Shown here piece after piece: positions 1-15,596 of a stretch of DNA of 64,000 nt. How positions within the stretch are numbered: the first letter of the stretch is position 1; every line of letters starts with the position of its first letter. The notes below the pieces were generated by a model. The model was not told the DNA's origin and did not search any database. It saw only the letters and a list, made by a program, of their open reading frames with translations. The stretch comes from Bacilli bacterium (GTDB lineage: Bacteria > Bacillota_I > Bacilli_A > RF39 > UBA660). Position numbers and translations under genes: made by a program. The stretch lies in NCBI GenBank assembly GCA_017428495.1, contig JAFRQS010000026.1, positions 8,372-72,371 on the forward strand, given 5' to 3'.

Positions 1-987
1 CATGATTTGCAAGTTCTGATATCATATTGATTCTTAGTGGTCCAACTTCAGTTGCAACTAATGGATTTACATATCTTGTTTTTGCATTAATATTTACACA
101 ATATCTGCCATCAACATATTCATTGCTGTGATAAACTGTATTAGCATTTTGAAATCTTCTAAAACTATCAGATAGATAAGTATCATTACAATTTAAAAAT
201 TTATTAATTATTTCTTCTTCTGATAATGTATATAAATCATCTATTGTTAAATACCCAGCATTACTCATAGATTTACACATATCCGCTAAGAATTGCATAA
301 CAGTCCTATCTTTATCACTTACCCATTCGGGCCAAAGTCTTGATATAGTATGAATATATTCTTCACACACTTCTTTATCCTTAAATGCCAGTTCATCTAT
401 ACCATCTTCATTTTTTACAATTGTTATATTATTGTACATCTTTTTTATTTGTTCTAATTCCCATACTCTAAAAAATGTTAGTCCACTAGCAAAAGTATAT
501 TCAAATCTATCGGCTGATAATCTTGGAGTATCATTATCAGCAATTGGATATATATGATAGTCATCTACTTCTTCTAATTTTATTCCATCTCTATTTAATA
601 AAGCCATTATTTCTTTTGAATTTTTAATAATATCAGTTGTTCTTTCTTCAGTAGATTCTTGTGTTTCTGAATCGCCATTCATAAAATCTATACAATGTTT
701 AAATACTGGAGTTGCTATATCATGAAATAGTCCAGCAATAGTTTGCTTCTTATCATGAGTAAAATTCCATATTATTAATGCTACTCCAACACTATGATCT
801 AAATTAGAATACCAATATCTTAGATTAAAGCATTTAGAGTAATCTGTTCCACAACTCATACTTATTTTTCCAATTCTTTCCATTTCTGGAGTATCTATAT
901 ATTCTAATAACCATTCTGGAAATGTTGGCGATAAGATACTAAAATAATCTCTTACTTCATCATTTAAATTATCTATGTACTTTTCCA
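1..987 (-). CDS. HD-domain phosphohydrolase (5' part; continues beyond window start)
   Basis: Reverse translation from ATG at 987 (MEKYIDNLNDEVRDYF...). Contains H..G.....H.........AGLFHDIATP, the HD metal-binding motif. No stop before position 1. Confidence 0.6.
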
Positions 988-1014
988 TATAACCACCTGT
1001 TTAATTATTATATC

Positions 1015-1116
1015 AAAAAAGACTAGTTTTACCTAGTCTTTTTACTACTTATTGTTGATTGCAGCTTGTGCAGCAGTTTACACCAGCAGTCAATTATTAT
1101 TTTAACTAAAATGACT
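1015..1116. repeat. att-like unit A: conserved-stem hairpin (1015-1043) + ppdK 3'-end mimic ttgattgcagcttgtgcagcag (1055-1076) + ACTAAAATGACT (1105-1116)
   Basis: 19-nt identity to ppdK 3' end at 12985-13003. Hairpin stem aaaagactag/ctagtcttt is shared with the units at 1880, 2754, 3388 and 12910. Confidence 0.8.
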
Positions 1117-1118
1117 CT

Positions 1119-1850
1119 TTAATCGAATTCTAATCTCCCTTTTCCTTTATAAAGATATTGTGGAATATTTAGTTTTAATTTTAATTCTTTAACATATCGT
1201 GGTTTAATATTTTCCTCTAATATTCTGCTAATAGCATCTGTTTGATGTTCTGGAACAGGTTCATCTAATGGCATTCCTAATACACACTTATCTTCACTTG
1301 CAGATGGAATAATGCCATGTGCTAACAATTCATTTTCTTTTGTCCAATCATCTTCCAAATCATAAACAGGTAATAATAGTTCTATGCCAAATTCATTTAG
1401 TAATTGCCTATATCCTTCAATAACTTTTGGCTGCTCAATAGAAAATAATTGACTTTTTCTTGCACCTTCGGCAATAAAATGAACATCATTTAATAAACAA
1501 TATCTTATTGCTTCATGATACATAGCACTTCTGCAATTTAGGCATCTGACTTGCGAAATAGTAGTATCACCATATCTACTGCAAAGCTCACTAAATGACA
1601 TATTTGCTATTACTCTTTCATTGTCTCTAAATAGAGGAACCGTTGTAAGTTTTCCTACATATTCAACTATATCTTTACCATATCCATTTTCAAATTTTAT
1701 TGCTCTTTCAACTTCTAAACCAGTTGATATAGAGCAGCCATTATCAAAATGAACTAATAAAACTTTATAACCTTGTGATACCAATCTTGCCATAGATAAT
1801 ATTGAATCTAATCCGCCAGAATACATTAGAAGAACTTTTTTCCTTTCCAT
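1119..1850 (-). CDS. PP-loop ATPase, QueC-like (7-cyano-7-deazaguanine synthase family); cassette cargo
   Basis: N-terminal LLMYSGGLDS PP-loop motif. About 240 aa with a C-terminal Cys pair (CLNCRS). Stop is 2 bp from ACTAAAATGACT. Confidence 0.6.
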   Translation of the reverse strand: MERKKVLLMYSGGLDSILSMARLVSQGYKVLLVHFDNGCSISTGLEVERAIKFENGYGKDIVEYVGKLTTVPLFRDNERVIANMSFSELCSRYGDTTISQVRCLNCRSAMYHEAIRYCLLNDVHFIAEGARKSQLFSIEQPKVIEGYRQLLNEFGIELLLPVYDLEDDWTKENELLAHGIIPSASEDKCVLGMPLDEPVPEHQTDAISRILEENIKPRYVKELKLKLNIPQYLYKGKGRLEFD

Positions 1851-1879
1851 AACCCCACTCCTTGAATAGATTATAACAT

Positions 1880-2116
1880 AAAAAAAGACTAAAATATAAT
1901 AATTCTAGTCTTTCTAAATATAAATATCCATAAATATAGGTTCATTTAATCTATATTTTACATTATTACCACATATTCTTTTAACATCATCAATTGTAAT
2001 AATTATTCTCACTAAGAATATGCTTTCATACTGTTTCATTTTCCTGATTTTTCGTGAAGATGAGCTTGTGCAATTTCCTACTTTGGCAGTCAATTTATAA
2101 ACTCACTAAAATGACT
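1880..2116. repeat. att-like unit B (degenerate): hairpin 1880-1914, core gatgagcttgtgcaatttcc 2058-2077, ACTAAAATGACT 2105-2116
   Basis: Same stem (aaaagacta...ctagtcttt) and agcttgtgca core as the ppdK end. The right-end ACTAAAATGACT is 9 bp from the stop of the next gene. Confidence 0.65.
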
Positions 2117-2126
2117 TATATTTTTA

Positions 2127-2468
2127 TTATTTCTTATTTTTGGGCTTTAATATTTTAGAAAATGCATTTGAACATTTTTCTTTTATTCTAGCTGTTTTTG
2201 GACCAAATCTTTTAGATACGATTGCAACTGACATTACAAATCTAGTATATATTTCTTCAATTTGTTTACATTTGTCCATATAATATTGTTCTGTATCTAT
2301 ATTATTGGCAATTGATTCTTTAACTTCTTGTTCCATTAAAGATAATGGATATTCAAAATATTGAACAATTGTAGAATATAAATGATCAGCTTTACATTTT
2401 TCTATATCTTCTTTTAACAAATTTAATCCTATATAGTATTGTTCTTTAAAAGTTATTTTCTTTTCCAT
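2127..2468 (-). CDS. hypothetical protein (cassette cargo)
   Basis: 113-aa ORF with no recognisable motif. Bracketed by att-like units B and C. Confidence 0.45.
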   Translation of the reverse strand: MEKKITFKEQYYIGLNLLKEDIEKCKADHLYSTIVQYFEYPLSLMEQEVKESIANNIDTEQYYMDKCKQIEEIYTRFVMSVAIVSKRFGPKTARIKEKCSNAFSKILKPKNKK

Positions 2469-2753
2469 ATTTCCTCCTTTTTTATTAATTTCATAGTTTT
2501 AACGCTCTGGAATTATTTGGTTATTTATCGAGCTAACCAATATCACCAAATTGCATTCATAATTTGCTATATATTTCTCATCTGATGACATGACAAAAAC
2601 CTCTATTGCAGTCACATATTATACATCAACTTTTGAAATATATCAAATACTAAATAGAACAACTCTAAATAAGCCAATTATAATCTAATTCCTGTTGGTT
2701 TTCTAAAATACATATATTATCATCCTTTCTTTTTTATATATTTTTTTCCAACA

Positions 2754-2877
2754 AAAAAAGACTATTTCTAGCCTTTCTTGTATTTTATATTTTCATGCTT
2801 TTGCGTTCTAATTATTTCTCGCTTTAATTGCAGCTTGTCACCATGTGAGGTTCGGGCCGATTTAGACTAAAATAACT
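2754..2877. repeat. att-like unit C: hairpin 2754-2778 + ttaattgcagcttgt 2824-2838 + ACTAAAATaACT 2866-2877
   Basis: About 85 bp collinear with 12910-12996 (ccaacaaaaaaagactatttctag...ttaattgcagcttgt), then diverges after cttgt. Confidence 0.8.
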
Positions 2878-2902
2878 TTTTGTCATATGTACAACAATTA
2901 AT

Positions 2903-3361
2903 TTAAATCTTTTTTCTCGCATTATCAATTTGTAATCTGCATTCATTTTCTAATATTCCAATTTCAATATTTAGTTCTGTTTTTGATTTATCTTTAATAT
3001 CAAATATAGTCACATTAGGGTTCATAGTTTCTTCACTTGGAGCACCATATATATAATTTTGTATTTTTGCTTTGATGCATGCAGACATACACATACTACA
3101 ACTCCATGCATTTGACATTATACAATAATCAGATAAATCCATTGTATGAAGTTTCTTGCATGCTTTTGAGATTAAATTAATTTCTGCATGTAAAATAGGA
3201 TTCATCATTGATTTAACAGTATTGTGTGCCTTTTCTATTATATTTCCATTTTTATCAATTAGTATTGCACCAAATGGTGAATTTCCTTCTTTGATTGCTT
3301 CATCTACTTCTTGCATCACTAATCTCATTAATTCTTCTTTTTTCTCTATAGTTAGATTCAT
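2903..3361 (-). CDS. CDA-fold (cytidine/guanine deaminase-like) zinc deaminase; cassette cargo
   Basis: HAEINLI ... CSMCMSAC zinc-binding signature of the cytidine/dCMP deaminase superfamily. About 150 aa, comparable to Bacillus GuaD. Confidence 0.65.
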   Translation of the reverse strand: MNLTIEKKEELMRLVMQEVDEAIKEGNSPFGAILIDKNGNIIEKAHNTVKSMMNPILHAEINLISKACKKLHTMDLSDYCIMSNAWSCSMCMSACIKAKIQNYIYGAPSEETMNPNVTIFDIKDKSKTELNIEIGILENECRLQIDNARKKI

Positions 3362-3387
3362 TCTATCACCTATATAAATTATACCAT

Positions 3388-3527
3388 AAAAAAGACTAGA
3401 TTAGTCATCTAGTCTTAATTACACTTTTTACTTATTTGCCCCAGACTTGATTGCAGCTTGTCAAACCAGATAATTAACTTATCCAATATGGACGCTTAAA
3501 TGTATGATTTTTAAGACTAAAATGACT
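3388..3527. repeat. att-like unit D: hairpin 3388-3416 + ttgattgcagcttgt 3447-3461 + ACTAAAATGACT 3516-3527
   Basis: Same three-part architecture as units A and C. ACTAAAATGACT is 13 bp from the stop of the downstream gene. Confidence 0.8.
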
Positions 3528-3540
3528 TAATTTAATTTTT

Positions 3541-4221
3541 CTATTTAATATTTATTAGATTTTTTACTATTTCTATAAATTGATTCCATCCTATTACTAT
3601 TGTTATAATCACTGAAAGAAAAGTTAAAATACTGATAATACCACTACATAATTTGAATAATACACTATCTTTTACTTTAGATAAACTTTTAGAAGATATT
3701 AATCCCACACTAAATAATATATCAAGAGGGCTTCCTAATATTGCTTTAATACCGCTTGTTAAGTCATATATAGGATTAAATAATCTTCTTATTTCATTTT
3801 TTCTATACTCATCTATTATTCCCATCTTTCTTAAAAAACAATTATGACACCATGTTATTTGATCTCCTTCATATTCAATCAACCCTTTTGCTTTTAAAGA
3901 TAAGACTTCGTTCATGAAATTAATTACTACTTCATAATTTGGATAATGACCTCTACTATCTCTGTAAAGCATTATTCCCGAATCACCTAATATTATTTGT
4001 ATTTTATCACTATTTGACATAAGCCATTCATATTCTTTTGCATTATATTTATCTTTATTCATCAAATCTGAAATAAATTTGCTAAACTTTTCTCTATACT
4101 CATAGATAAAGTTATAATTATCAGACCACTTTCTTATATTTAAAACATTAGTAATAATACCAATTATAATTAGAAAAATTACTGTTAGAATAAAATATAT
4201 CATGGTATGCCTCCTTAACAA
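3541..4221 (-). CDS. membrane protein (N- and C-terminal TM helices), unknown function
   Basis: Hydrophobic segments at residues about 7-28 and about 195-220. Lies immediately downstream of the serine recombinase, co-directional. Confidence 0.45.
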   Translation of the reverse strand: MLRRHTMIYFILTVIFLIIIGIITNVLNIRKWSDNYNFIYEYREKFSKFISDLMNKDKYNAKEYEWLMSNSDKIQIILGDSGIMLYRDSRGHYPNYEVVINFMNEVLSLKAKGLIEYEGDQITWCHNCFLRKMGIIDEYRKNEIRRLFNPIYDLTSGIKAILGSPLDILFSVGLISSKSLSKVKDSVLFKLCSGIISILTFLSVIITIVIGWNQFIEIVKNLINIK

Positions 4222-4250
4222 TATATTATACCATTTTATTCTAAAATAGC

Positions 4251-5876
4251 TTAATCTAATTTGTGTTCTACGATAAAATAATCTTGTTTTTTTCCTTTCA
4301 CTTCTAAATTAATTGGTTCCTTTAAAAATACTAATTTCCATTCGAACCAATCTTTATGTACTGTTATTTTTTCTACTACCTCCTCTATTAATAAATCATT
4401 AATTCCATTGTAATTAAAATCTAATAATCTTCTAACACTTTGTTTAGCTTTTTCAATTTTAACTTCAGGTGGATCTAATCTTTTTAATTCTTTTTCTAAA
4501 TCTTCTATTTCTAATTTATATAATTCTATTTTATCAGATAGTTTCTTTTGAAAAGATTCATAATCATTTGAATTAACTTTCTTATCTAAATATAAATTCA
4601 ATAATCTATCTAATTTAGTAGATTCTTCTTTTATTAATTTATTATATCTTTTTATTTCACTATTTAATTCATCAGCTTCATGTGTATCTATTTTTATACC
4701 ATTAAGTAGTATTAGTTCTAATTCTATTCTGTTGTGATCATCTTCAACAAGATTTCTAAATATAAACTCAGCCATTTTTTCAAGTTTCCATTCCTGTACT
4801 TCTTTAACTTCACAATATTTATAACCATATTCATACTTCCCACCCTTGGGATGAGTTTTTCTATTATAGCATGCATAGGCATATGTTTTACCTTTGTTAG
4901 TTGTGTGATCTTTTCTTCTATTAAATGTTGAACCACATTCACAAATCATTTTCTTGCTCCAAACATATTTAGGTACTCCAATTGCTGTCCTATCACCTGA
5001 TGGTGATGGTTTAGAGTGTCTATCTAATATAGCTTGTACTTTATCAAAATCTTCTTTTGAAATAATAGGTTCATGTGTACCTTCAACAACTATTTGTTCT
5101 ATCTCTCCTCTATTCTTTTTAGCTTTTTGCTCAAGATAATCTGGAATATATTGTTTGTTATAAACTATTGTTCCAGCATAGAATTGATTTCTTAATACAC
5201 GAGTTATATAAGCCGCATTCCATCTATTTAGTCCAGTTGATGTCTTATAACCCTTCCTTTCTAAGTCTTTTGCTATAGTAGTAGTTCCTACACCATTTAG
5301 ATATTTTTTAAATATATATCGAACTATATCTGCTTGGTCTTGATTAACTATCATAGTATTCTTATTAATTTTGTCATATCCAAGAATATTTCCTGAACCC
5401 ATGAAAATTCCATTCATGAATGCTATTCTTAAACCTGCTTTTACTCTTTGAGAAGTTTTCTTACTCTCATTTTGAGCTAGTGTTGCCATTATAGTGAGCT
5501 TTAATTCTCCATCATCATCCTTAAATGTCCATATATTATCTTCAGTAAAATATACTTCAACACCAATCTTTTTTAGTTTTCTTGTTTCTTGTAATGTATC
5601 AACTGTATTTCTAGCAAATCTTGATACTTCACGAGTAATAATTAAATCAAATTTACCTTCATGGGCATCTTTCATCATTCTTATAAAATTCTTTCTTTTC
5701 TTAATAGAAGTTCCTGTAATACCTTCATCTATATATCTATCATATAGAATCCAATTAGGATGTTTATCTAAAATATCATCATAGTACTGAACTTGATTAT
5801 CTAATGCTGACAATTGAGCTTCATGTTCAGTAGATACACGAGCATATATAGCAACCTTCCTATTCATTTTCATCAC
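4251..5876 (-). CDS. large serine recombinase (resolvase/invertase N-domain + recombinase domain + zinc ribbon + coiled coil)
   Basis: VAIYARVSTEHEAQLSALDNQ with the catalytic Ser region, RFARN and a Cys cluster (CECGS...CYNRK...YCE). 541 aa, typical of phage/ICE-type serine integrases. Confidence 0.85.
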   Translation of the reverse strand: MMKMNRKVAIYARVSTEHEAQLSALDNQVQYYDDILDKHPNWILYDRYIDEGITGTSIKKRKNFIRMMKDAHEGKFDLIITREVSRFARNTVDTLQETRKLKKIGVEVYFTEDNIWTFKDDDGELKLTIMATLAQNESKKTSQRVKAGLRIAFMNGIFMGSGNILGYDKINKNTMIVNQDQADIVRYIFKKYLNGVGTTTIAKDLERKGYKTSTGLNRWNAAYITRVLRNQFYAGTIVYNKQYIPDYLEQKAKKNRGEIEQIVVEGTHEPIISKEDFDKVQAILDRHSKPSPSGDRTAIGVPKYVWSKKMICECGSTFNRRKDHTTNKGKTYAYACYNRKTHPKGGKYEYGYKYCEVKEVQEWKLEKMAEFIFRNLVEDDHNRIELELILLNGIKIDTHEADELNSEIKRYNKLIKEESTKLDRLLNLYLDKKVNSNDYESFQKKLSDKIELYKLEIEDLEKELKRLDPPEVKIEKAKQSVRRLLDFNYNGINDLLIEEVVEKITVHKDWFEWKLVFLKEPINLEVKGKKQDYFIVEHKLD

Positions 5877-5980
5877 CTCTACTAAAAATTAACATTTTTA
5901 TAAGAATTTGTTTACTGTGCGATTTTTACATAAGAAAAAGAAGTATTTCTACTTCTTTCATCACACATTTGACAATTATT

Positions 5981-6292
5981 CTATTCTTCAGCAGCTATAT
6001 CCTTATACTTATCGATTACCTCTTGCATCTCACTGTTGATTTCTTGCACCAATACAGGCTTATTTTGAACAAACGTTTTTAATTGCCCATATATATTACT
6101 ATAAATAAGTTTTTCAACGTCACTTGCAATTTCAACGCCTTCAATATATTCATCTAATACTATCTCTTCCTCATCATATATTTTTTGTAAAATTTCATAT
6201 ATATCTTCTTTAGCAATATCAGATATAGGTTTAAAATCCACTCCATCTTTGCTAAAATAGCACTTTTTATTTTCAATTTTTAAAAGTTTCAT
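5981..6292 (-). CDS. small acidic protein, partner of the PHP-ATPase (translationally coupled)
   Basis: Start MKLLKIEN at 6292 with RBS AAAGGAGAAATATAT upstream. Overlaps the upstream gene's stop (6273) by 20 bp. Confidence 0.5.
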   Translation of the reverse strand: MKLLKIENKKCYFSKDGVDFKPISDIAKEDIYEILQKIYDEEEIVLDEYIEGVEIASDVEKLIYSNIYGQLKTFVQNKPVLVQEINSEMQEVIDKYKDIAAEE

Positions 6293-8306
6293 ATATATTT
6301 CTCCTTTCATCATATGCTTCACTACCTGCTTCCATAACTTCCATTATAGTGTCATAACTCATTATTGAATCATTATTAACTGTTGATAATGTTTTACTAC
6401 CAAATTCTCCAGTATAAACCTTAAACACATTATCTTCGTTAGCTGTATAAATCAATTTATTAGGTTTCATTAACATTCCCAATGAATTATTATGTGTAGA
6501 TATAAATACAGTAGTTTTATTAGATAATTCTTTTATTATCTCTATTATATAATCCTTTATAAATGGATTATCAAATGATGCTTCTGGTTCATCTAATAAT
6601 AATATATCATAACTTTCAGAGCCTTTAATCTCCCGTAACAAATTGTATTCAGCTCTTTCTCCTCCAGATAATTCATTACCATTCTCATTTATTACCTTAA
6701 CTTTAAATGATAATATTGCTTTGTAAACCGTGCTTCTGTCGATTCCAGCATTTACTAATTCTTTAATAAATTTAAATGGATTGGTATTATAGTTAGAATT
6801 AAAATATGAACTAATTCCTGTTCTTGTCGAAAGTTCGTGTTTTACTTCATCTGCATTATTAAATTTATCTTTCTCAACAATAAGTTTAAAACGATACACA
6901 TCTAATTCACAAATATTTTTCTTTGTTTTTAGTCTTGATACCAATTCATTATATTTATTAACTAAAATTAATTCTTTACTAGCTTTGTAAAGATTAACCT
7001 CACTTATATTTATCATTGAGGATTTTGTTGTTAATTTATCCTTAATTATAGTTACTATATTATCAGTGCTTTGCTTTAACTTATATTCTAAATACTCTTT
7101 TCTTCTCCTAGCAATTAAATCATTTATTAAACTTACAATTTGCTTTTTATCTAAATATTTTTCAATCAAATCTTTGTTATGATCACTATCAAGAATTACA
7201 GTTAACGCATTTACTATTTTTTTAGTATCATAATTATCTAAAAAATCAAACTTAATTTCATTGAATAGTTTAGTTTTTGAATATGAATCTTGTAAAGATT
7301 GATTTGTAGCAAACTCTTTTAGACTTGATAAATAATTATCTATTTTATTTAATTCTTCATTATTAATATCTAAAATTGTATCAGTTAGTTTTCTAAGTGG
7401 TTCTAAATAATTAGAAATGATTCTTTGTTGTTCATCTTTAACAAGTTCCTTAAACTTGCTTTCTTCACTTTTACCAGTCAAAGAGAATTGAGGAATATAT
7501 TTGATATTCTCACTTTTATTATCCTTTGAACTATAAATGTGTTCCAAATTATAAGTTTTTCCAGATGATCTCTTTCCTATAATTACATTTAATTTTGTTG
7601 AAGCAGTTGTACCATCTGGTAAATATGAAAATTCATCTGCTTTTTTATTTTCAGAGATAAAAACCTTATTTTTATCTGATAAAGCTTGTTTTAATACGCC
7701 AAACTCTGTTGAATTTATGTCTACGAAAGTGCTTTTTGATGGAAAGCTATATATTCCTTCTTCATTTTTATATGAATCCTCCATTCGAATATCGCTAAAG
7801 AAAACAGGTGAATAAAAAGTATCCTCTTTTTTTGTACTTTCAAATTTTTTTGCACTTTTTACTTCACCAACATTTATAATATTACCAAATTTTTCAATTG
7901 TGGTACTTTTCATTGATGGCTCTTTCTTTATGTGGGGGATTAAAATATAATCTCTGTAGTTTGGAAATATTCTAATAAATTCTTCATAACTAATTGAATC
8001 ATTAGCATTGTGTATGGAATTATTTAATAAAACGCATGAATTATTCAATTCTTCAACTCTATCTATTGAGGCAATAGCTAACATATGAGATGATTCAATA
8101 TCAATTTCTACCCCTGGTAATACAACACAGTTTAATTTGTTAACGATTGTTTCAAATTGATCTTTATCAAAATGATTATGATTAGTTATTGATATTATAT
8201 CTAATTTATTGATGTCAACATACTTTTCTAATGCATCGATTGAAAAATCAAATGATCTTTCAAAATTACTTGGTGATGTGTGTATATGTAAATCTATTTT
8301 TTTCAA
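6273..8306 (-). CDS. PHP-domain phosphoesterase fused to SMC/ABC-type ATPase (Walker A, coiled coil, LSGG signature, Walker B, H-loop)
   Basis: N-terminal IDLHIHTSPS...ITNHNHFD (PHP). GKRSSGKT (Walker A). About 300 aa helical region. LSGGERAEYNLL signature. ILLLDEPEASFD (Walker B). ISTHN (H-loop). Likely TTG start at 8306 preceded by an in-frame stop and a GGAG RBS. Confidence 0.7.
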   Translation of the reverse strand: MKKIDLHIHTSPSNFERSFDFSIDALEKYVDINKLDIISITNHNHFDKDQFETIVNKLNCVVLPGVEIDIESSHMLAIASIDRVEELNNSCVLLNNSIHNANDSISYEEFIRIFPNYRDYILIPHIKKEPSMKSTTIEKFGNIINVGEVKSAKKFESTKKEDTFYSPVFFSDIRMEDSYKNEEGIYSFPSKSTFVDINSTEFGVLKQALSDKNKVFISENKKADEFSYLPDGTTASTKLNVIIGKRSSGKTYNLEHIYSSKDNKSENIKYIPQFSLTGKSEESKFKELVKDEQQRIISNYLEPLRKLTDTILDINNEELNKIDNYLSSLKEFATNQSLQDSYSKTKLFNEIKFDFLDNYDTKKIVNALTVILDSDHNKDLIEKYLDKKQIVSLINDLIARRRKEYLEYKLKQSTDNIVTIIKDKLTTKSSMINISEVNLYKASKELILVNKYNELVSRLKTKKNICELDVYRFKLIVEKDKFNNADEVKHELSTRTGISSYFNSNYNTNPFKFIKELVNAGIDRSTVYKAILSFKVKVINENGNELSGGERAEYNLLREIKGSESYDILLLDEPEASFDNPFIKDYIIEIIKELSNKTTVFISTHNNSLGMLMKPNKLIYTANEDNVFKVYTGEFGSKTLSTVNNDSIMSYDTIMEVMEAGSEAYDERRNIYETFKN

Positions 8307-8361
8307 CTATCTCATCTCCACTTCAACAATTATTATAACATAAAACAGGAAGCTTAACTTC

Positions 8362-8565
8362 CTATTTTATTCCCCTTGGATTCCAATCCATACCTATATT
8401 TTCAAGTAATTCTATTTTTTCTTTTGATAATTTATTCTTTTTATAAGTACCTCTTTGAGTTCCTATCCATCTACCTAATTGTATTTTATCTATAGTTGTA
8501 TATCGAAACGGAATTAATAAATTTCCTTTTTCTTTATAATATTGTTCAGCAAGTTTATAAATATA
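8362..8565 (-). pseudogene. remnant of a helicase-associated (HA) domain gene
   Basis: 57-codon frame with no start: ...KLAEQYYKEKGNLLIPFRYTTIDKIQLGRWIGTQRGTYKKNKLSKEKIELLENIGMDWNPRGIK*. Matches the G.W...QR..YK.GKLS.E....L...G..W HA-domain pattern. Stop codon lies just upstream in frame. Confidence 0.5.
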
Positions 8566-8625
8566 TTATTTCAATGGTTACTCTCCATAAAATTTCTTCT
8601 CACTTGTTGTTATTATATCATGAAA

Positions 8626-8652
8626 AAAGCAGATTTTTTCATCTGCTTTAGA
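8626..8652. terminator. hairpin aaaaaagcagattttttcatctgcttt (second copy at 10562-10589)
   Basis: Perfect inverted repeat (gcagat/atctgc) flanked by A/T runs. A near-identical copy lies 1.9 kb away. Confidence 0.55.
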
Positions 8653-8677
8653 ATGCACAATATCTTAATCTTCCGAT

Positions 8678-9607
8678 CTAATCTATTTTTAATTTAAATG
8701 AATACCAAGCAGTTCCACGATCACATATTGTATCAATTAACACTACATATTCCCCTTTTAAATTAGGAACTGTAAAATTATTTTTTTCATAAGTAATAGG
8801 AATATCTACTTTTTCATATTTTGAATCATAAAAGGTAATTCTAGTTATAGTTAAATCACTAGAGGAATCTAGAGCAATAATATCCTCTTTATTACTTGGC
8901 AAATATTCATCATAATTAATATCTTCTAAAGGAATTGACAAGCCACATGAACTTGCTTTATCTTCTCCTTTAGTATCAGTAATACAATATGAGCCAATTT
9001 GTGTAAGATTTCTATCTTTACCATTAATTACCCACAAATTTCTTGGTGTTGGATTAAATACTTCAACATCCCAAGTAAATAGCCAAAAGCCAAATTTAAT
9101 ATTAATACTATTACTTAATGGCTCATTAGGTGAAATACTTACTTCTTTTTTCATTTTATAACCAAATCCCAAATAAGTATAATTATTTCCATTTTCACGA
9201 ATTGGTATCATAAACAATGGATTTTCATTATGCCTTACACGATTATAATCAGTCCAAAATGTATAAATAAAGAACAATAGCAGGAAAGCAACTACAGATA
9301 TAATTATAATTCTTTTAATTTTTTTAATCCTATTTGTTGAATATTTTATTGTATTATTTAATACTTCATCAGTTTTTTCTTTTAATTCACTTTCTTTTAT
9401 TCTTTCACCACTCAATAATTCATTTAAAGATATATCAAGTATTTCACATAGCGGTTTATAAAAAACTATATCTGGCATTCTTCTACCATTTTCCCAGTTA
9501 CCAATAGCTCGATCTGTTACATTTAATTTATCTGCAAGTTCTTGTTGTGTCATCTTTTTTTCTTTACGAATTTTAGCAATAAATTTTCCAATTTTTTCTT
9601 GATTCAT
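8678..9607 (-). CDS. membrane-tethered XRE-family HTH regulator (HTH - TM - extracytoplasmic domain)
   Basis: N-terminal MTQQELADKLNVTDRAIGNWENGRRMPD (Cro/C1 HTH). TM at about 100-120. Confidence 0.7.
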   Translation of the reverse strand: MNQEKIGKFIAKIRKEKKMTQQELADKLNVTDRAIGNWENGRRMPDIVFYKPLCEILDISLNELLSGERIKESELKEKTDEVLNNTIKYSTNRIKKIKRIIIISVVAFLLLFFIYTFWTDYNRVRHNENPLFMIPIRENGNNYTYLGFGYKMKKEVSISPNEPLSNSINIKFGFWLFTWDVEVFNPTPRNLWVINGKDRNLTQIGSYCITDTKGEDKASSCGLSIPLEDINYDEYLPSNKEDIIALDSSSDLTITRITFYDSKYEKVDIPITYEKNNFTVPNLKGEYVVLIDTICDRGTAWYSFKLKID

Positions 9608-9746
9608 AGTTTTTGCTCCTTTCGTATTTAATTATAGATTGCATTTCTAAAAAAGTATCCAAACAATCCGTAGGGTTTCATATATCTATATTTTATCACA
9701 AAAAAAGAGAATTCTTTAATTCTCCTAATAACCATTATTTGAATAG

Positions 9747-10469
9747 TTATTTTTCATATAACAATACTGATTTATTTATATATTCATCTAGTTGCTTTTT
9801 TGATATGTTTTTAATATTATTTATATTTGAATCAATATAATATATTTTTATTTTCTTAGTCTCTTTGTCGTTGATAGTTATGGGATAGTATCTATAACTA
9901 TTTCCGTTATAAATAGATTTCTTAACTATTTCATTATAAGAACATTTAGAATTCAAAAATATAATCTCATAATCATTATCATCCATTATAGAGTATTGAT
10001 TAATGTTGCCACTATAGACGGTACATAAATCTTTTGTGGTAAAAAATAATTGATTATCTCTTTCTTCAACATACATCCTATTTTCATCATAGTTTAAAAT
10101 TACTTTATGATTTCCAACAAGTATTAATGTTAAAACAACAATAACTATTATTGATACTAAAACAATAATTGTTCTTCTTATTCGTGTAATTTTAGTATTT
10201 ACATTTGATATAACGGAAAAAACATTTTCTTCTAACTTTTCTTGGTATGAATTTTTTTCTACCTTTTCACCACTTAACAAATCATTTATTGTAATATTTA
10301 ATTCATTACACAACGGTTTAAAAAAAGATACATCAGGAAAATTCTTACCATTTTCCCAATTTGATATAGCTCTATCTGTTACACCTAATTTTTCAGCTAA
10401 TTCACTTTGAGTAATTTTATTATCTTTACGACATTTAGCTATAAACTTTCCTATTTTAATTTGATCCAT
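9747..10469 (-). CDS. membrane-tethered XRE-family HTH regulator, paralog of 8678..9607
   Basis: ITQSELAEKLGVTDRAISNWENGKNFPD HTH followed by a TM segment. N-terminal region nearly identical to its neighbour. Confidence 0.7.
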   Translation of the reverse strand: MDQIKIGKFIAKCRKDNKITQSELAEKLGVTDRAISNWENGKNFPDVSFFKPLCNELNITINDLLSGEKVEKNSYQEKLEENVFSVISNVNTKITRIRRTIIVLVSIIVIVVLTLILVGNHKVILNYDENRMYVEERDNQLFFTTKDLCTVYSGNINQYSIMDDNDYEIIFLNSKCSYNEIVKKSIYNGNSYRYYPITINDKETKKIKIYYIDSNINNIKNISKKQLDEYINKSVLLYEK

Positions 10470-10613
10470 TTTATTTCTCCTTTCTAGATTTAGAATACTA
10501 TGGCTTATAAAAAAATAACACGAAGTGTTGCTTGAGTTTTTAATATTATTATTTTATCACAAAAAAAGCAGATTTTTTTCATCTGCTTGATTATTAATTT
10601 TATAAGAATTCTA

Positions 10614-10934
10614 CTATGAAACCCATGACCACAGTCTTATTCCATAGAATAAATAAAATTCTTTCCCCATAACCTTAACCATTTTATTATCGTCTGAAGA
10701 ATCTTCTGACATATAATACTTTACTTTTATTTTATAGCCAAGGCTAAAATATTCAAAATCTATTTCTTCACCAGGTTCTAAACATGATATACAATATTTT
10801 GTCCTATCCAAAACTATTAATGGTTTACTACTATCATTAATTTTTAATCTTATACTTTCTTCTGTAATAAATAAAGCAAATATTCCTATAATTACTATTA
10901 ATATTATTCTTATTATTTTAAATACTTTCTTCAT
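10614..10934 (-). CDS. small membrane-anchored protein
   Basis: N-terminal hydrophobic anchor, 106 aa. Confidence 0.35.
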   Translation of the reverse strand: MKKVFKIIRIILIVIIGIFALFITEESIRLKINDSSKPLIVLDRTKYCISCLEPGEEIDFEYFSLGYKIKVKYYMSEDSSDDNKMVKVMGKEFYLFYGIRLWSWVS

Positions 10935-10945
10935 CTAAACACCTT

Positions 10946-12121
10946 TTATTTCTTTATTAATACATCAGGATAGTCATCAGCAATTTTATCAGCTGATATT
11001 AAGTTGGTTTCTAATGCAGACTTAAGAGTCATAACCTTATTATCAATCATAAACTTAATCATTACTTTATCACTCTTAATGCAACTTAAATAGTATTTAT
11101 GTCCATTATTTTCATAGATTTGTTCTAATGCTGTAGCACAAGTTTCGTCTGGATCAGAATAGTCTAAAATGCTATAGAAAATATAATCTGTTTCATTCTC
11201 AATTATTTTTCTCAAATCTGTTCCATTTGATATTGAATAATAACAACTATTTATACTTTCTGGTAGAATTCTCTTTCCATCACCCCATACTTGTATCGTT
11301 TCAATTAGTTTTTTATCATCATACATTTTAAACTCAAATCCATGTCCATCACTTAAACAATATTCACCATATCTGTTTGCACTTGATATTGCATTTAATA
11401 TTTCCTTTATTTTATTCGAATCTTTTATTACACCTAATTCTTTATCACCAGCATTAATTATTATTTTATTAGTTTTATCTATTTTTTTAATAATATTGGA
11501 TGGTATAGATTTACTTTGTTTTTCACTATTATTAGTTACACATTTATTAGTTAAGTCTTCCATATCAATATCGTTATTTTCAGTATGAACATAAATAATA
11601 GGAATTACTGGGCTTGAGAATGTTTGGTATGTAGTAAACCTTTTACTAAAGTATTCATCAAAAACATTCATTACTTCTGATTCATAAGTTCCATTTTTAG
11701 GGAAAATAATAAAATACATATTGTCTTTATGTTTACTAGCATATTTACCTTTAAATATATCAATTTTATCTTTATTAACATTTTTTATTTCAGATAATTG
11801 TATTTCAATTAAATCATCTTGTTCTGTTACTAAATATCCACCTAATTCATTTTCTAAACAAGATACAAGTTTATTCATGTCTTGTTCTGCTTCAACATAG
11901 GTATTTATTTCTCCGGCAACATGAAATCCTAGTATTTTAAGTTCCCATCCGTCTTCATATCCAGTTGATGAGGTCTGACTTATTCTGTGTATTTTAGTAT
12001 ATTTATATAAAACAGCTTTATATTCTGTAGATCCTCCATCCCATAATCTGTCTTTAATTGGAATAAGCATTAAGATAAAAATTGCAATTATAACAATAAT
12101 AATTATTTTTTTCTTTTTCAT
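10946..12121 (-). CDS. membrane-anchored extracytoplasmic protein, unknown function
   Basis: N-terminal KKKK plus hydrophobic anchor. 391 aa. Confidence 0.4.
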   Translation of the reverse strand: MKKKKIIIIVIIAIFILMLIPIKDRLWDGGSTEYKAVLYKYTKIHRISQTSSTGYEDGWELKILGFHVAGEINTYVEAEQDMNKLVSCLENELGGYLVTEQDDLIEIQLSEIKNVNKDKIDIFKGKYASKHKDNMYFIIFPKNGTYESEVMNVFDEYFSKRFTTYQTFSSPVIPIIYVHTENNDIDMEDLTNKCVTNNSEKQSKSIPSNIIKKIDKTNKIIINAGDKELGVIKDSNKIKEILNAISSANRYGEYCLSDGHGFEFKMYDDKKLIETIQVWGDGKRILPESINSCYYSISNGTDLRKIIENETDYIFYSILDYSDPDETCATALEQIYENNGHKYYLSCIKSDKVMIKFMIDNKVMTLKSALETNLISADKIADDYPDVLIKK

Positions 12122-12213
12122 AGTTCCTCCTATATCTTTATTATACTACATAATTATTAAATATTATCATCAACTTAAATCATCGTAATATTACTATTTT
12201 TCGAACAAAGGAA

Positions 12214-12681
12214 TTAGCTATATAAATTATAGTTTAATTTCCATTCAATATATTCTTGATCTGATATTTCACCTTTCATTCTTCTTTCTCTCATTTCTCC
12301 CCATTCTTCTAATCCTCTTATAATATCTTCATTGTAATATGTCTTTTTCATTGCATCTTTGTCGAAAATATATTCACTATAAGGGCTTAGTTCTTCTTCC
12401 CACATATGATAATAAATAACTTCATTAGGGTCTACAAAATTATATCTTCTTATTGCATAGTTACTTACATCAAATAATTCTGCTAAATCTTCTAATCTTT
12501 CTGGTTGTGGTTCTCTAGCATTTCTTTCATATTTATCTATGCTATCTGTTGGTTTTTCACCTCCTAACTCTAAAAACTCTGCTACATTTGGCTTAGACAT
12601 ATATCTTAGCTCCCTTACAAATTTTAGTCTTGCGCCTTGACTAAGATTCTCCAATTCAGGTTTAAAAAAATAATTTTTCAT
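12214..12681 (-). CDS. XRE-like HTH domain protein
   Basis: ARLKFVRELRYMSKPNVAEFLELGG ... LEDLAELFDVSNYAI resembles an HTH_3 domain. Located at the ppdK-proximal end of the island. Confidence 0.4.
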   Translation of the reverse strand: MKNYFFKPELENLSQGARLKFVRELRYMSKPNVAEFLELGGEKPTDSIDKYERNAREPQPERLEDLAELFDVSNYAIRRYNFVDPNEVIYYHMWEEELSPYSEYIFDKDAMKKTYYNEDIIRGLEEWGEMRERRMKGEISDQEYIEWKLNYNLYS

Positions 12682-12721
12682 AAATATACCTCCTATCTTA
12701 TTTTTTTATTCCATTAAAAAA

Positions 12722-12760
12722 GCTAGTACTTAATACTAGCCAACTCCTTTTTTATTCTTT
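12722..12760. terminator. bidirectional terminator hairpin gctagtacttaatactagc
   Basis: Perfect 7-bp stem flanked by A-run and T-run. Confidence 0.5.
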
Positions 12761-12909
12761 TTAACTTTTGCTCTCCATATTTGGACTACAAGAAATGCAA
12801 CCCGAGTTTTATTGTCACTATACTATGCCATTTAGAACCACCTCTTTTCCAATTTTTAATAATTTTCACTTAAATATTTATGATTACCCCCAAACCCTTT
12901 TAATCCCAA

Positions 12910-12996
12910 CAAAAAAAGACTATTTCTAGTCTTTTCATTTTATTACTTTGGTACGTTTAAACGTCCTATTTTTGATTCGCCTTAATTGCAGCTTGT
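12910..12996. repeat. ppdK-proximal att-like unit: terminator hairpin 12910-12935 + ttaattgcagcttgt 12982-12996 (current ppdK 3' end)
   Basis: Template for units A-D. The core overlaps the last 9 codons of ppdK. Confidence 0.8.
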
Positions 12997-15596
12997 GCAG
13001 CAGCAAGTCTAGCAAGTGGTACTCTATATGGTGAACATGATACATAATCTAGTCCTACATTATGACAGAACTCTACTGATGATGGTTCTCCACCATGTTC
13101 TCCACATATACCTAAATGTAAATCTGGTCTTGTACTTCTTCCTAATTCAGCAGCCATTTTTACAAGTTTACCAACACCTATTTGATCTAATTTAGCAAAT
13201 GGATCTTGTTCATAAATATTATTCTTATAGTAATCACCTAAGAATTTAGATGCATCATCTCTTGAGAATCCAAATGTCATCTGTGTTAAATCATTTGTAC
13301 CAAATGAGAAGAATTCTGCTTCTTTTGCTATATCATCTGCTGTAAGTGCTGCTCTTGGTATTTCTATCATAGTACCAACTTTATATTTTAATTCTACTCC
13401 AGCATTTTTAATTATTTCATCTGCAGTTTTAACTACTATATCTTTAACAAATTTTAATTCCTTAACCTCTCCTACTAGCGGAATCATTATTTCAGGTTCT
13501 ACATTTAATCCTTCTTTATTAACATTAATTGCTGCTTCAATTACAGCTCTTGTTTGCATTTTTGCTATTTCTGGATATGTAACAGCAAGTCTACATCCTC
13601 TATGTCCCATCATTGGGTTAAATTCTTTTAATGATTCAACTCTTTTCTTCAATGATTCAAAACTCATACCTAAACTCTTTGCAAGTGGTTTAATTTCTTC
13701 ATCTGTATGTGGTAAGAATTCATGTAGAGGTGGATCTAAGTAACGAATAGTTACTGAATATGGAGCCATTGCTTTAAATAATCCTTCAAAGTCACTTCTT
13801 TGATATGGAAGAATCTTTTCAAGTGCTTCTTCCCTTTGTTCAATAGTTTCTGCTGCTATCATTCTTCTAAAATTAAATATTCTATCTTCTTCAAAGAACA
13901 TATGCTCTGTTCTACATAAACCAATACCTTCTGCGCCAAATTTTCTTGCTTGAATAGCATCTTTAGGCGTATCAGCATTTGTTCTTACTTTTAATCTTCT
14001 AACACTATCAGCCCAATTCATAAATGTTTCAAAGTCTCCACTTATTTCTGGTTCAACTGTTTTAATTTGTTCACCATAAACATTACCAGTTGATCCATCT
14101 AAACTCATGAAGTCTCCTTCATGGAATACTAATCCATCCTTTGTTGTAAGAGTTTTTTCTTCTTCACTAATTGTTAATTCACCACAACCAGATACACAGC
14201 AAGTTCCCATACCTCTTGCTACTACTGCAGCATGTGATGTCATACCACCTCTTATAGTAAGTACACCATTAGCATAGTTCATACCTTCTATATCTTCTGG
14301 ACTAGTTTCTAATCTTACTAATAATAAGTCTTTCTCACCAGATTCTTTAGCTTTAACTACATCTTCAGCTGTAAAGTAAATTTTACCAGTTGCTGCACCT
14401 GGAGATGCTGCTAAACCTTTAGCTATTACTTTACCATTCTTTAATGCTTCAGAATCAAACATTGGATGTAATAATTGATCTAATTGTTTTGGTTCAACTC
14501 TTAAAAGTGCTTCTTCTTTAGTAAGCATACCTTCAGATACAAGATCTACTGCCACTTTAAGTGCTGCTGCTGCAGTTCTTTTACCATTTCTAGTTTGTAG
14601 CATAAATAATTTGCCATTTTCTATAGTAAATTCCATATCTTGCATATCTTTATAATGATTTTCTAATAAATTAGCAATTCTTACAAATTCAGAATATACT
14701 TCTGGCATATCACTTTCTAGTTTACTTATTGGTTCTGGTGTTCTTATACCTGCAACAACATCTTCACCTTGTGCATTTATTAAATATTCACCATATAATT
14801 TCTTTTCACCAGTAGCAGGGTTTCTTGTAAATGCAACACCTGTTCCACAATCATTACCACGGTTTCCATATACCATTTCCTGAACATTAACAGCTGTTCC
14901 CCAATCACTTGGTATATCATTTAATCTTCTATATACTATAGCTCTTTCATTCATCCATGATCTAAATACTGCCTTAACTGCTTCTATTAATTGTACTTTT
15001 GGATCTTGTGGGAATTCTTCACCAGCAAGTTCTTTATAATTTTCTTTAAATCTTAGTGTAACCTCTTCCATATCATCTGCTGTAAGTTCAAGGTCACTCT
15101 TAACTCCTTTTTCTTCTTTTATTTTATCGAAATATCTTTCAAATGATGATTTTGGATATCCTTTAACTACATCTGCAAACATTTGAATAAATCTTCTATA
15201 AGAATCATATGCAAATCTTTTATTATTTGTAGCTTCTGCAAATCCTTTTGCAACTTCATCATTTAAACCTAGATTTAAAACTGTATCCATCATACCAGGC
15301 ATTGATGCTCTTGCACCACTTCTTACTGATACAAGTAATGGATTATTTAAATCTCCCATCTTCTTTCCTGTTTTAGCTTCTAATTCAGCAAGTTTAGTAA
15401 ATATTTCATCTTCTATATCTTTACCAATTTCCTTACCATTATCATAATATCTTGTACAAGCTTCTGTTGTAACTGTAAATCCTCTTGGTACAGGCATACC
15501 TATATTAGTCATTTCTGCTAAGTTAGCACCCTTACCACCAAGTAGATTTCTCATGTCTTTACTACCTTCTTCAAAGGCATAAACGTATTTTCCCAT
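12966..15596 (-). CDS. ppdK: pyruvate, phosphate dikinase
   Basis: 876 aa. N-terminal GKYVYAFEEG...LLGGKGANLAEM. Central phospho-His domain (GGMTSHAAVVARGMG). C-terminal PEP-utilising domain. Confidence 0.9.
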   Translation of the reverse strand: MGKYVYAFEEGSKDMRNLLGGKGANLAEMTNIGMPVPRGFTVTTEACTRYYDNGKEIGKDIEDEIFTKLAELEAKTGKKMGDLNNPLLVSVRSGARASMPGMMDTVLNLGLNDEVAKGFAEATNNKRFAYDSYRRFIQMFADVVKGYPKSSFERYFDKIKEEKGVKSDLELTADDMEEVTLRFKENYKELAGEEFPQDPKVQLIEAVKAVFRSWMNERAIVYRRLNDIPSDWGTAVNVQEMVYGNRGNDCGTGVAFTRNPATGEKKLYGEYLINAQGEDVVAGIRTPEPISKLESDMPEVYSEFVRIANLLENHYKDMQDMEFTIENGKLFMLQTRNGKRTAAAALKVAVDLVSEGMLTKEEALLRVEPKQLDQLLHPMFDSEALKNGKVIAKGLAASPGAATGKIYFTAEDVVKAKESGEKDLLLVRLETSPEDIEGMNYANGVLTIRGGMTSHAAVVARGMGTCCVSGCGELTISEEEKTLTTKDGLVFHEGDFMSLDGSTGNVYGEQIKTVEPEISGDFETFMNWADSVRRLKVRTNADTPKDAIQARKFGAEGIGLCRTEHMFFEEDRIFNFRRMIAAETIEQREEALEKILPYQRSDFEGLFKAMAPYSVTIRYLDPPLHEFLPHTDEEIKPLAKSLGMSFESLKKRVESLKEFNPMMGHRGCRLAVTYPEIAKMQTRAVIEAAINVNKEGLNVEPEIMIPLVGEVKELKFVKDIVVKTADEIIKNAGVELKYKVGTMIEIPRAALTADDIAKEAEFFSFGTNDLTQMTFGFSRDDASKFLGDYYKNNIYEQDPFAKLDQIGVGKLVKMAAELGRSTRPDLHLGICGEHGGEPSSVEFCHNVGLDYVSCSPYRVPLARLAAAQAAIKANQK

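Follow-up and report, generated by a model that had tools for sequence, protein, structure and literature searches.

The 64,000-nt stretch of Bacilli DNA analysed here (hereafter the window, with its first letter as position 1) carries, between positions 3462 and 12996, a 9.5-kb block that lies directly downstream of ppdK, the gene for pyruvate phosphate dikinase. This block is very probably an intact, recently mobile integrative island whose family has the ppdK 3ʹ end as its specific target in uncultured, low-GC Bacilli of the gut and rumen. An initial annotation had described an integrative element bounded by two arms, P and Pʹ, and driven by its own large serine recombinase, and this description is supported by the evidence presented below. 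The features that carry it are as follows.

12966-15596, minus strand: ppdK (pyruvate phosphate dikinase, 876 aa), the integration target, with PPDK_N and PEP-utilizers domains
12985-12996: ppdK-proximal copy of the 12-nt repeat ATTGCAGCTTGT, with the minimal shared core GCTTGT at 12991-12996
12899-12984, minus strand: P arm (about 12899-12996 with the core), with a replacement ppdK tail and stop (12966-12984), a palindrome and a hairpin
4251-5876, minus strand: large serine recombinase (541 aa), with the catalytic motif YARVST, Resolvase, Recombinase and Zn-ribbon domains, and a C-terminal coiled coil
3462-3527: Pʹ arm, with the inner half-site, the palindrome TCCAATATGGA (3482-3492; GGACG at 3490-3494) and the motif ACTAAAATGACT (3516-3527)
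3450-3461: distal copy of the 12-nt repeat, with GCTTGT at 3456-3461, followed leftwards by an earlier ppdK tail (..IKSGANK*)

The two repeat copies that bracket the block match the reverse complement of the ppdK 3ʹ end (encoding ..AAQAAI..). The repeat occurs four times in the 64 kb, at 1058, 2827, 3450 and 12985, and nowhere else; 0.32 copies are expected by chance, and none of 100 shuffled sequences yielded four. The final codons of ppdK (IKANQK and the stop at 12966-12968) come from the P arm of the element. Base composition across the window (G+C content ~26%) does not set the element apart, and nearly all genes of the window lie on the minus strand.

The recombinase is the sole serine recombinase in the window and is intact, with all three domains of a large serine integrase: Resolvase and Recombinase each score 97 bits in Pfam and Zn_ribbon_recom matches weakly, while the YARVST motif and the coiled-coil-like C-terminal part were read from the protein sequence. 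Its nearest curated models in NCBIfam are CcrB and CcrC, at scores far below the respective cut-offs (154.7 of 900 bits for CcrB, 120.5 of 900 for CcrC and 59 of 700 for CcrA). Among solved structures, a conjugative-transposon recombinase domain, SprA and the A118 integrase come closest, and the protein matches the integrase family phrog_95 of the PHROGs collection. An exact look-up of the 541-aa protein returned no record; a gene caller places the start later (538 aa).

A scan of one genome per species produced 79 loci with relatives of this recombinase (designated by L numbers), the closest of which reside in metagenome-assembled genomes (MAGs) of uncultured gut and rumen Bacilli or ‘Tenericutes’. 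Among the 17 loci with a recombinase of at least 63% identity and at least 7 kb of upstream flank, ppdK lies upstream on the same strand in 16, a positive outcome for the check that the initial annotation had proposed. In most of these 16 loci, a homologue of the 155-aa helix-turn-helix (HTH) protein encoded at the P-arm end of the element directly follows ppdK.

Further genomes of the source species were obtained by an exact look-up of the neighbouring YitT protein, which returned 14 contigs; two of them, L093 and L103, are the window’s own contig (ENA ERZ28654133, sample SAMN15829925, scaffold_23). Three others (L094, L098 and L099) are 99.2% identical to the window at the nucleotide level through ppdK, and this homology stops exactly after ACAAGC (window 12991). 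Beyond that point they carry a different tail (..QASIRAKQSK*), a terminator and a TfoX_N cassette, and they lack the recombinase element. Thus, the element is present or absent within one species. The unit adjoining ppdK in these element-free genomes encodes a protein with TfoX_N, a competence regulator domain (L094 13704-13997, L098 4340-4633), followed by a zinc-ribbon protein.

Recombinases that are 96-98% identical occur in hosts whose PpdK proteins are just 66-73% identical (L001, L005 and L007), and the element has therefore spread between distant hosts. Both arms recur in relatives, and the boundaries initially proposed for them are accordingly real: the 66-nt Pʹ arm, including ACTAAAATGACT, follows such 96-98% identical recombinases in five MAG loci and 13 metagenome contigs, and the window type of P arm is also present in L007, L043, L085 and L089. 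On the 13 metagenome contigs, an exact 27-nt stretch of the Pʹ arm precedes at least 10 different downstream sequences. The Pʹ arm had no match in a scan of 2.9 million viral contigs (IMG/VR). Each left-hand copy of ATTGCAGCTTGT has the motif ACTAAAATGACT 28-55 nt to its right, and a further copy of the motif is found at 2105, beside a degenerate core at 2063-2069; the plus-strand positions of the motif are 1105-1116, 2105-2116, 2866-2877 and 3516-3527.

Attachment sites and the predicted crossover

Read in the sense of ppdK, each junction consists of a left arm, ACAAGCTGCAAT, an in-frame tail of 3-13 codons with a stop, and a hairpin with a T run. Sixty-two such junctions were found in the window and 40 of the 79 MAG loci, and 110 distinct junction sequences result once the 13 metagenome contigs are included. 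The minimal sequence common to all of them, degenerate ones included, is ACAAGC(T). In elements that carry a recombinase of the window’s kind (type A), the P arm begins with a tail ending in ..QK or ..QN and a stop, which is followed at once by a small palindrome (ACGTTTAAACGT at 12953-12964 in the window). The P-arm hairpin, AAAGACTAtttcTAGTCTTT with its T run, occupies about 12915-12937. Similar junctions were observed beside recombinases of 49-50% identity in Lachnospiraceae and other Clostridia (L046 5132, L053 11700 and L069 11642), where ACAGGCTGC(A/T)AT is followed by the tail QAAIAQK* or QAAIAEEA*. There ppdK falls outside the 10-kb upstream flank, and these sequences suggest that the ppdK-end target is conserved across bacterial classes.

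The two arms of an element are related by a mirror repeat. The pentamer at Pʹ positions -32 to -28 is the reverse complement of that at P positions +31 to +35 in 11 type-A elements of four sequence subtypes, with five of five positions matching in seven elements, four in three and three in one. In the window, CGTCC at 12962-12966 mirrors GGACG at 3490-3494. The pentamer pairs (Pʹ/P) are distributed as follows.

CGTCC / GGACG: four loci, 5/5
CGTTC / GAACG: two loci, 5/5, plus one 4/5 variant
CATAC / GTATG: one locus, 5/5
CATTC or TATTC / GAGTG: two loci, 4/5 and 3/5
CATTC / GAACG: one locus (the chimeric L037), 4/5

The complementarity extends from 25 to 47 nt outwards from a centre between bases 1 and 2 of ACAAGC. 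Because the pentamers covary among subtypes, the dyad centre is fixed inside the shared core, and the crossover dinucleotide is predicted to be the AC of ACAAGC, which corresponds to GT on the plus strand of the window at 12995-12996 and 3460-3461. The ends of the element thus have the form of attL and attR, with a short shared core and an inverted repeat in the arms that lies unusually far out. A blind dyad scan of the reconstructed attP was too noisy in this AT-rich DNA, and was replaced by the position-fixed comparison of mirrors across subtypes.

Sequence data, read in the light of what is established for large serine integrases, suggest the following mechanism. The 541-aa recombinase would recombine the attP of a circular element, composed of the Pʹ arm, the ACAAGC core and the P arm, with an attB formed by the last codons of ppdK, making a staggered cut at the central dinucleotide. 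Since the P arm brings replacement codons, a stop and a terminator, ppdK stays intact. The predicted attP junction is ...TTAATTATCTGGTTTG-ACAAGC-TGCAATTAAGGCGAATCAAAAATAGGACG and the predicted scar after excision is ...CTTGCTGCTGC-ACAAGC-TGCAATCAAGTCTGGGGCAAATAA; a circle formed by a single neighbouring cassette would, in one example, have the junction ...CGGCCCGAACCTCACATGGTG-ACAAGC-TGCAATCAAGTCTGGGG. The regulator encoded next to the P arm probably represses the genes of the element, and may bind the mirror-placed palindromes of the arms, ACGTTTAAACGT in P and TCCATATTGGA in Pʹ.

Two further sequence motifs were observed at unit ends. The motif (A)GTCATTTTAGTC sits directly past the final stop codon in every unit. 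Its distance to the core is fixed (63-69 nt) in elements with a recombinase and varies in cassettes, and its TAGTCTT part is similar to the 3ʹ half of the terminators of cassettes (AAGACTAG..CTAGTCTT). In L009 (5613-5682) and L008 (9638-9707), a conserved segment of ~50 nt (ggaaactatgagttatgacctcgtaaca[t/c]cgcggagatatgc[a/c]atttcgac) stands directly before the core in place of the normal Pʹ arm.

Backbone and cargo of the element

The initial annotation had listed a membrane protein, the recombinase, a PHP-ATPase with a partner, a pseudogene, several XRE-type regulators and two anchored proteins; all of these gene calls hold. In addition to the recombinase and the arms, the element contains the following features.

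12682-12898, minus strand: conserved non-coding leader upstream of the regulator gene, with a terminator-like hairpin at its end (12721-12741)
12214-12681, minus strand: 155-aa XRE-family regulator, with an ImmR-like N-terminal domain and a helical C-terminal domain (backbone gene)
10946-12121, minus strand: 391-aa protein with an N-terminal membrane anchor and no family match (cargo)
10614-10934, minus strand: 106-aa protein with an N-terminal membrane anchor and no family match (cargo)
9747-10469, minus strand: 240-aa XRE HTH protein with one transmembrane segment (residues 94-112), a paralogue of the protein encoded at 8678-9607
8678-9607, minus strand: 309-aa XRE HTH protein with one transmembrane segment (residues 94-112) and a C-terminal extracytoplasmic part
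8660-8674, minus strand: module-boundary motif GGAAGATTAAGATAT, followed by a hairpin with a T run and CATGATATAAT
8362-8565, minus strand: startless fragment of a helicase-associated (HA) domain, a pseudogene (PF03457, 61.4 bits)
6273-8306, minus strand: PDC-M49A, 677 aa, candidate anti-phage protein (PDLC04680, E 4.4e-188, full length)
5981-6322, minus strand: PDC-M49B, its small partner, overlapping the end of M49A (PDLC04682, E 6.8e-18)
3541-4221, minus strand: 226-aa membrane protein in an optional cargo slot between the recombinase and the Pʹ arm

The same backbone order was found in eleven relatives, 4.7-8.7 kb in length: the P arm, the HTH regulator, one to three cargo genes, the recombinase, zero to two genes, the GTCATTTTAGTC motif and the Pʹ arm. 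The 155-aa regulator is always the first gene after the P arm. The backbone of the element itself reads P arm, leader, ImmR-like XRE regulator, first cargo slot, recombinase, optional second cargo slot and Pʹ arm. The gene at 3541-4221, which the initial annotation had noted as separating the recombinase from its attachment arm, is indeed an optional insert; the gene is missing from L001-L005 and present in L007, L013 and L037, with a homologue in L007 that is 96% identical.

Cargo genes of the relatives include type II and type IIG restriction-modification systems, a PHP-ATPase resembling Ppl and PDC-M49A, and a DEDDh exonuclease. In the window, the N-terminal part of PDC-M49A resembles PHP metallohydrolases and is joined to an ABC/AAA-type ATPase part, and the gene overlaps that of PDC-M49B, such that the two form the adjacent M49A and M49B pair of the PADLOC models. 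Given these candidate defence genes in the window and the defence genes in the corresponding slots of its relatives, the islands of this family look like compact vehicles for defence genes.

Gut and rumen metagenomes contain more than 130 sequence clusters of the family to which the 155-aa protein belongs. A profile comparison matched the N-terminal domain of the protein to ImmR of ICEBs1 (7t8i, E 1.9e-6), and in a structure model of moderate confidence (pLDDT 72.5) the HTH domain superimposes on ImmR with a TM-score of 0.90 over 67 residues. A structure search with the model found partners for the HTH domain only, none of them at E ≤0.001, and the helical C-terminal domain had no match. We read this protein as the predicted repressor of the element. 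The leader, which spans 234 nt between the P-arm terminator and the regulator gene, is 83-88% identical in L001, L005, L007 and L043, and its core is better conserved than the protein; in L085 and L089 it is deleted, and the regulator there is truncated as well. No Rfam family matched the leader, or any other part of positions 1-16000 at E values up to 1, and no covariation was detected in the leader, whose sequence is too conserved to reveal any. A mini-ORF (open reading frame) of the form GAGGTG-ATG-GCA-TAG lies within it.

The two membrane-tethered XRE genes (8678-10469) are tandem paralogues, with 60% identity over the first 81 residues and unrelated C-terminal parts; at the DNA level they form a 240-nt repeat that is 71% identical. 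The same type of terminator precedes each gene (8607-8639 and 10546-10578, 88% identical).

Several observations weigh against an intact and recently mobile island with the properties described above. Neither a circular attP junction nor a precise empty site for this exact array was recovered, and nothing of its movement was seen directly. In one of the 17 loci (L004), the 7.7-kb upstream flank shows no ppdK. A directionality factor was likewise not found: the small excisionase-like gene whose presence the initial annotation had raised did not appear, and the sole conserved partner of the recombinase is the XRE regulator, which looks like a repressor of the ImmR type. The half-sites of studied serine integrases span ~25 bp; the mirror repeats lie beyond this distance, and the inner 24 nt exhibit little symmetry. 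Each mirror repeat is itself palindromic; the repeats may thus be accessory sites, bound by a dimeric XRE regulator for example, or RNA hairpins, rather than recombinase contacts. Finally, the anti-phage role of the candidate PDC-M49A/B pair derives from a PADLOC candidate family for which no validation was found, and no paper mentioning PDC-M49 was encountered in the literature searched.

The neighbouring cassette array and rival explanations

The element is the unit closest to ppdK, and probably the newest, in a tandem array. A separate ppdK tail remains from every earlier insertion, and the array therefore reads ppdK, element, six recombinase-less units and chromosome. Four of these units lie within the window.

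2839-3449, minus strand: recombinase-less cassette 1, with a ppdK tail, a terminator (3392-3416), a -10-like box, a deaminase gene (2903-3361, cytidine/tRNA-adenosine type) and its own Pʹ arm
2070-2838, minus strand: probable decayed type-A element without a recombinase, with a P arm (2741-2838) 72% identical to 12899-12996 and a 113-aa ORF (2127-2468)
1070-2069, minus strand: recombinase-less PP-loop ATPase cassette (ATPase gene at 1119-1850), with the degenerate core AGCTTGT at 2063-2069
1-1069, minus strand: recombinase-less HD-domain-like cassette (369 aa in the source contig, cut by the window start), with its core at 1058-1069

Beyond the window, the source contig carries a GNAT cassette, a cassette with HTH and KilA-N genes and the last tail (QAAIKAKNNK*), after which come the TetR and MMPL genes of the chromosome.

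Tandem pairs of recombinase-bearing elements were seen in L085 (2119-6260), L089 (4987-9030) and L014 (4559-15623). Two Pʹ-core-P junctions that might have represented circular forms, in L085 and L089, are instead tandem elements with a decayed second copy and without terminal overlap. The second copy in L085 retains a regulator shortened to 97 aa, residues 351-539 of the recombinase and a degenerate Pʹ arm, and so shows how units such as 2070-2838 of the window can arise by decay. At the left end of the PP-loop cassette, a 59-aa ORF (1914-2093, minus strand) is the relic of an mgtE-like CBS-domain gene that is cut at the degenerate core ACAAGCT. In L114, from another sample, an apparently untruncated mgtE-like gene (1-106) stands before the same PP-loop and HD cassettes, which are 99.7% identical; the pair could be the trace of cassette capture at a secondary site.

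Such arrays are common downstream of this recombinase family, with six junctions and five one-ORF units in L030, at least nine junctions in L090 and five in L003. Across loci, the 35 recombinase-less units (446-2884 nt) contain one ORF in 24 cases, two in eight and three in three; 48 of the 49 ORFs are co-oriented with ppdK, and the 49 proteins fall into 45 clusters. Their contents include GNATs, uracil-DNA glycosylase, NUDIX, metallophosphoesterase and Fic proteins, a radical SAM protein accompanied by a 5-hydroxymethyldeoxyuridine (5-hmdU) DNA kinase, and toxin-like and defence genes. One cassette with a radical SAM/SPASM protein and the 5-hmdU DNA kinase (PF18723, E 4e-106) is present both in L003 (4930-7730) and in L090 (7778-9942), and is thus part of a bacterial array; such DNA hypermodification genes are known mainly from phages. 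A T run is present in 89 of the 110 distinct junctions, and in 32 of the 110 a TGnTAnAAT box directly follows it. A sigma-70 promoter scan revealed no enrichment (97 promoters found versus 103 expected), and our statements on cassette promoters therefore draw only on this recurrent box after the terminators.

The initial annotation had proposed that the recombinase of the element also services the neighbouring cassettes. This proposal is unproven and has been weakened by the comparison of arms. Cassette ends consist of a Pʹ arm, ACAAGC and a ppdK tail, and the cassettes have only the core in common with the element. Their Pʹ arms carry yCCCGAA at about -20 to -14 and GYRGY next to the core; these are unlike the Pʹ arm of the window’s element and resemble those beside recombinases that are just 51-55% identical. 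The covarying mirror repeats are missing from the cassettes, and the idea that cassettes are miniature versions of recombinase elements was rejected for lack of a mirror signal that distinguishes own from other arms. On balance, the evidence leans against a simple attribution of cassette movement to the window recombinase.

A serious alternative, which we consider plausible if somewhat short of probable, is that the array has been shuffled mainly by homologous recombination between conserved linkers, for example after DNA uptake, and that the attachment sites are used by the recombinase element only. The linkers in question comprise the ppdK tail, the terminator and the -10 box, and extend for about 70-100 nt with 85-95% identity. 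Tails and terminators are mosaic, and it is this pattern that gives the alternative its weight: the same tail and terminator precede different ORFs (window versus L091), the same ORF and Pʹ arm occur with different tails (L030 versus L092), and L003 has five near-identical tails. A TfoX_N (competence regulator) cassette occurs at ppdK in the same species, and a second linker motif, GGAAGATTAAGATAT, likewise marks breakpoints. However, several blocks of homology start exactly at ACAAGC with unrelated sequence to the left, cassettes with degenerate cores keep just ACAAGC(T), which is too short for such exchange, and the cassette Pʹ arms have a common, positioned CC..G..G pattern.

The second linker motif, in the form (A)ATC-GGAAGATTAAGATAT, yielded 21 hits at no more than one mismatch, of which ~16 are independent; they include window 8660-8674 (minus strand), L003 1793, L004 2335, L008 8592, L030 18246 and 19025, and L098 4641 and 4867. 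The sites occur within element cargo and within arrays. Read in the direction of the adjacent genes, nearly all of them come just past a stop codon and precede a terminator hairpin and a TGnTATAAT box. Because L004 and L080 share sequence downstream of the motif and not upstream of it, the motif marks a breakpoint. Possible roles are those of a further recombination site, a linker in homologous exchange and an RNA signal. Pairing of GGAAGAT with the following terminator as an antiterminator was rejected by eye, as the downstream hairpins differ between copies.

A more doubtful possibility is an integron-like capture system with the recombinase as its platform integrase. Acting in trans, as CcrAB does on tandem SCC-like cassettes, the enzyme would insert and excise cassettes at the end of ppdK, and the element would mainly be its carrier. 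The Ccr recombinases of the staphylococcal cassette chromosome (SCC) offer a precedent, since they mobilise tandem cassettes that lack recombinases (PMC11470126). Compact arrays lie directly downstream of the recombinase family in many loci, and the predominance of single, co-oriented and highly diverse ORFs described above would fit such capture. Moreover, homology blocks between loci begin exactly at the core, as for the deaminase block shared by the window and L090 (10685-11338), the HD cassette shared by the window and L003, and the metallophosphoesterase cassette shared by L030 and L092, and cassette order differs among the window, L003 and L090. Against these points stand the foreign type of the cassette Pʹ arms, the missing mirror repeats and the evident mobility of the element itself. 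In addition, the recombinase-bearing unit is almost always nearest to ppdK (L009, where a cassette separates ppdK from the regulator-recombinase element, is the only clear exception, with L018 and L014 as perhaps two more), which is not expected if a resident enzyme keeps capturing cassettes at the end of ppdK.

Two other explanations concern the element rather than the cassettes. It would be an integrative mobilisable element if it used a cryptic origin of transfer (oriT) together with the relaxase and mating pore of a co-resident conjugative element. Near-identical recombinases in distantly related hosts imply that cell-to-cell transfer happens, some more distant relatives exceed 10 kb, and islands that carry only an oriT have been described (bioRxiv 10.64898/2026.01.13.699239). 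Nevertheless, we consider this improbable. Scans of the element proteins against general libraries (Pfam, PHROGs and NCBIfam, the last covering six of the nine proteins) found no relaxase, coupling protein, secretion protein or known mobilisation family, no oriT was recognised with the tools used, and small-genome hosts of this kind may be without conjugative elements. The initial suggestion that the element is possibly mobilisable thus gained no evidence of a relaxase or an oriT, while its statement that conjugation and phage structural genes are missing agrees with the same scans. An ORF in the more distant relative L026 is possibly relaxase-like. That the block is a decayed prophage or phage satellite with a retained integrase and repressor is very unlikely: although the recombinase matches phrog_95, the XRE proteins match phage repressor families and Stl, the SaPI repressor, is among the weak Foldseek matches to the regulator, the scans found no structural, packaging, replication or lysis families in the element, at least 11 relatives combine this compact backbone with exchanged cargo, and the viral contigs lack the Pʹ arm.

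An integrative island specific for the ppdK 3ʹ end is therefore the reading that we retain. As a bolder proposal, offered tentatively and with more doubt than belief, the ppdK 3ʹ end of uncultured gut and rumen Bacilli, and possibly of Lachnospiraceae, could be the platform of a serine-recombinase counterpart of the integron. The recombinase family would then iteratively insert single-gene cassettes, each made up of a ppdK-tail mimic, a terminator, a promoter, an ORF and a Pʹ half-site and each regenerating an attB-like site, and the XRE regulator could read the covarying arm palindromes as a device for directionality or copy control. If so, the arrays would be exchangeable reservoirs of defence and nucleotide-modification genes.

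The island family adds a new integration site, the ppdK 3ʹ end with the core ACAAGC, and a compact group of serine-integrase islands in poorly known uncultured gut and rumen bacteria. Within the limits of the literature searched, we found no earlier description of ppdK as such a hotspot and no paper that links ppdK to serine recombinases or cassettes; the main text of Durrant 2022 makes no mention of ppdK. The family carries the strategy of SCC beyond staphylococci and enterococci, as a tandem store of defence genes that is more miniaturised and almost integron-like. It also offers testable material in the form of a short recombinase gene, predicted attP, attB and crossover sequences, naturally covarying arm variants, and recombinase-less cassettes for assays of action in trans. 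The ppdK end might serve as a marker for mining new defence and DNA-modification genes from metagenomes.

Comparison with known systems

Features of the element recall several well-studied systems. The regulator resembles ImmR of ICEBs1 in its DNA-binding domain and in the location of its gene at the element end. Unlike in ICEBs1, no gene for an ImmA-like anti-repressor protease lies beside it, and its C-terminal domain has no match.

We know of no arrays of one-gene, promoter-bearing cassettes among the ssrA islands of Dehalococcoides or the streptococcal accretions of cis-mobilisable and integrative mobilisable elements (CIMEs and IMEs). As described in PMC3146451 and PMC5704250, these islands likewise accumulate in tandem and site-specifically at the 3ʹ end of a conserved gene with duplication of the target ends, and serine recombinases are used in the Dehalococcoides islands and in some streptococcal IMEs. 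They differ in their targets and hosts, are larger, and carry their own recombinase or mobilisation genes.

Integrons parallel the arrays in architecture only, in that ordered, compact, mostly single-ORF, co-oriented and highly diverse cassettes lie beside a recombinase gene and have typical cassette contents (GNAT, NUDIX, toxin-like and defence genes). In contrast to integrons, the recombinase is of the serine rather than the tyrosine type, and no tyrosine recombinase (IntI) was found among the element and cassette proteins scanned. There is no attI/Pc platform, and attC-like sites were not noticed in the junction sequences read, although no dedicated attC search was made. Moreover, the cassettes carry their own terminator and promoter-like box, and the recombinase-bearing unit is itself mobile.

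The closest known systems are SCC and SCCmec, together with the Enterococcus cassette chromosome. In both cases, a large serine recombinase targets the 3ʹ end of a housekeeping gene and leaves that gene working, each unit is flanked by direct repeats of the gene end, some tandem units lack a recombinase, and transfer genes are absent. SCCmec has terminal inverted repeats, and the units described here likewise have inverted repeats near their termini. Differences are equally clear: the target is ppdK rather than rlmH (orfX), a single recombinase gene takes the place of the ccrAB pair and at 155 bits against a CcrB cut-off of 900 is no Ccr orthologue, the hosts belong to uncultured gut Bacilli of low GC content, and the units are far smaller (4.7-9.5 kb for the element and 0.45-2.9 kb for one-gene cassettes, each with a terminator and -10 box). 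A further likeness is a cargo rich in anti-phage defence (PMC11470126, PMC6222049). Given its scores below the cut-offs, its ppdK target, its single recombinase and its small units, the element is not a member of the SCC group; in architecture and logic, it works at ppdK as SCC and SCCmec do at rlmH.

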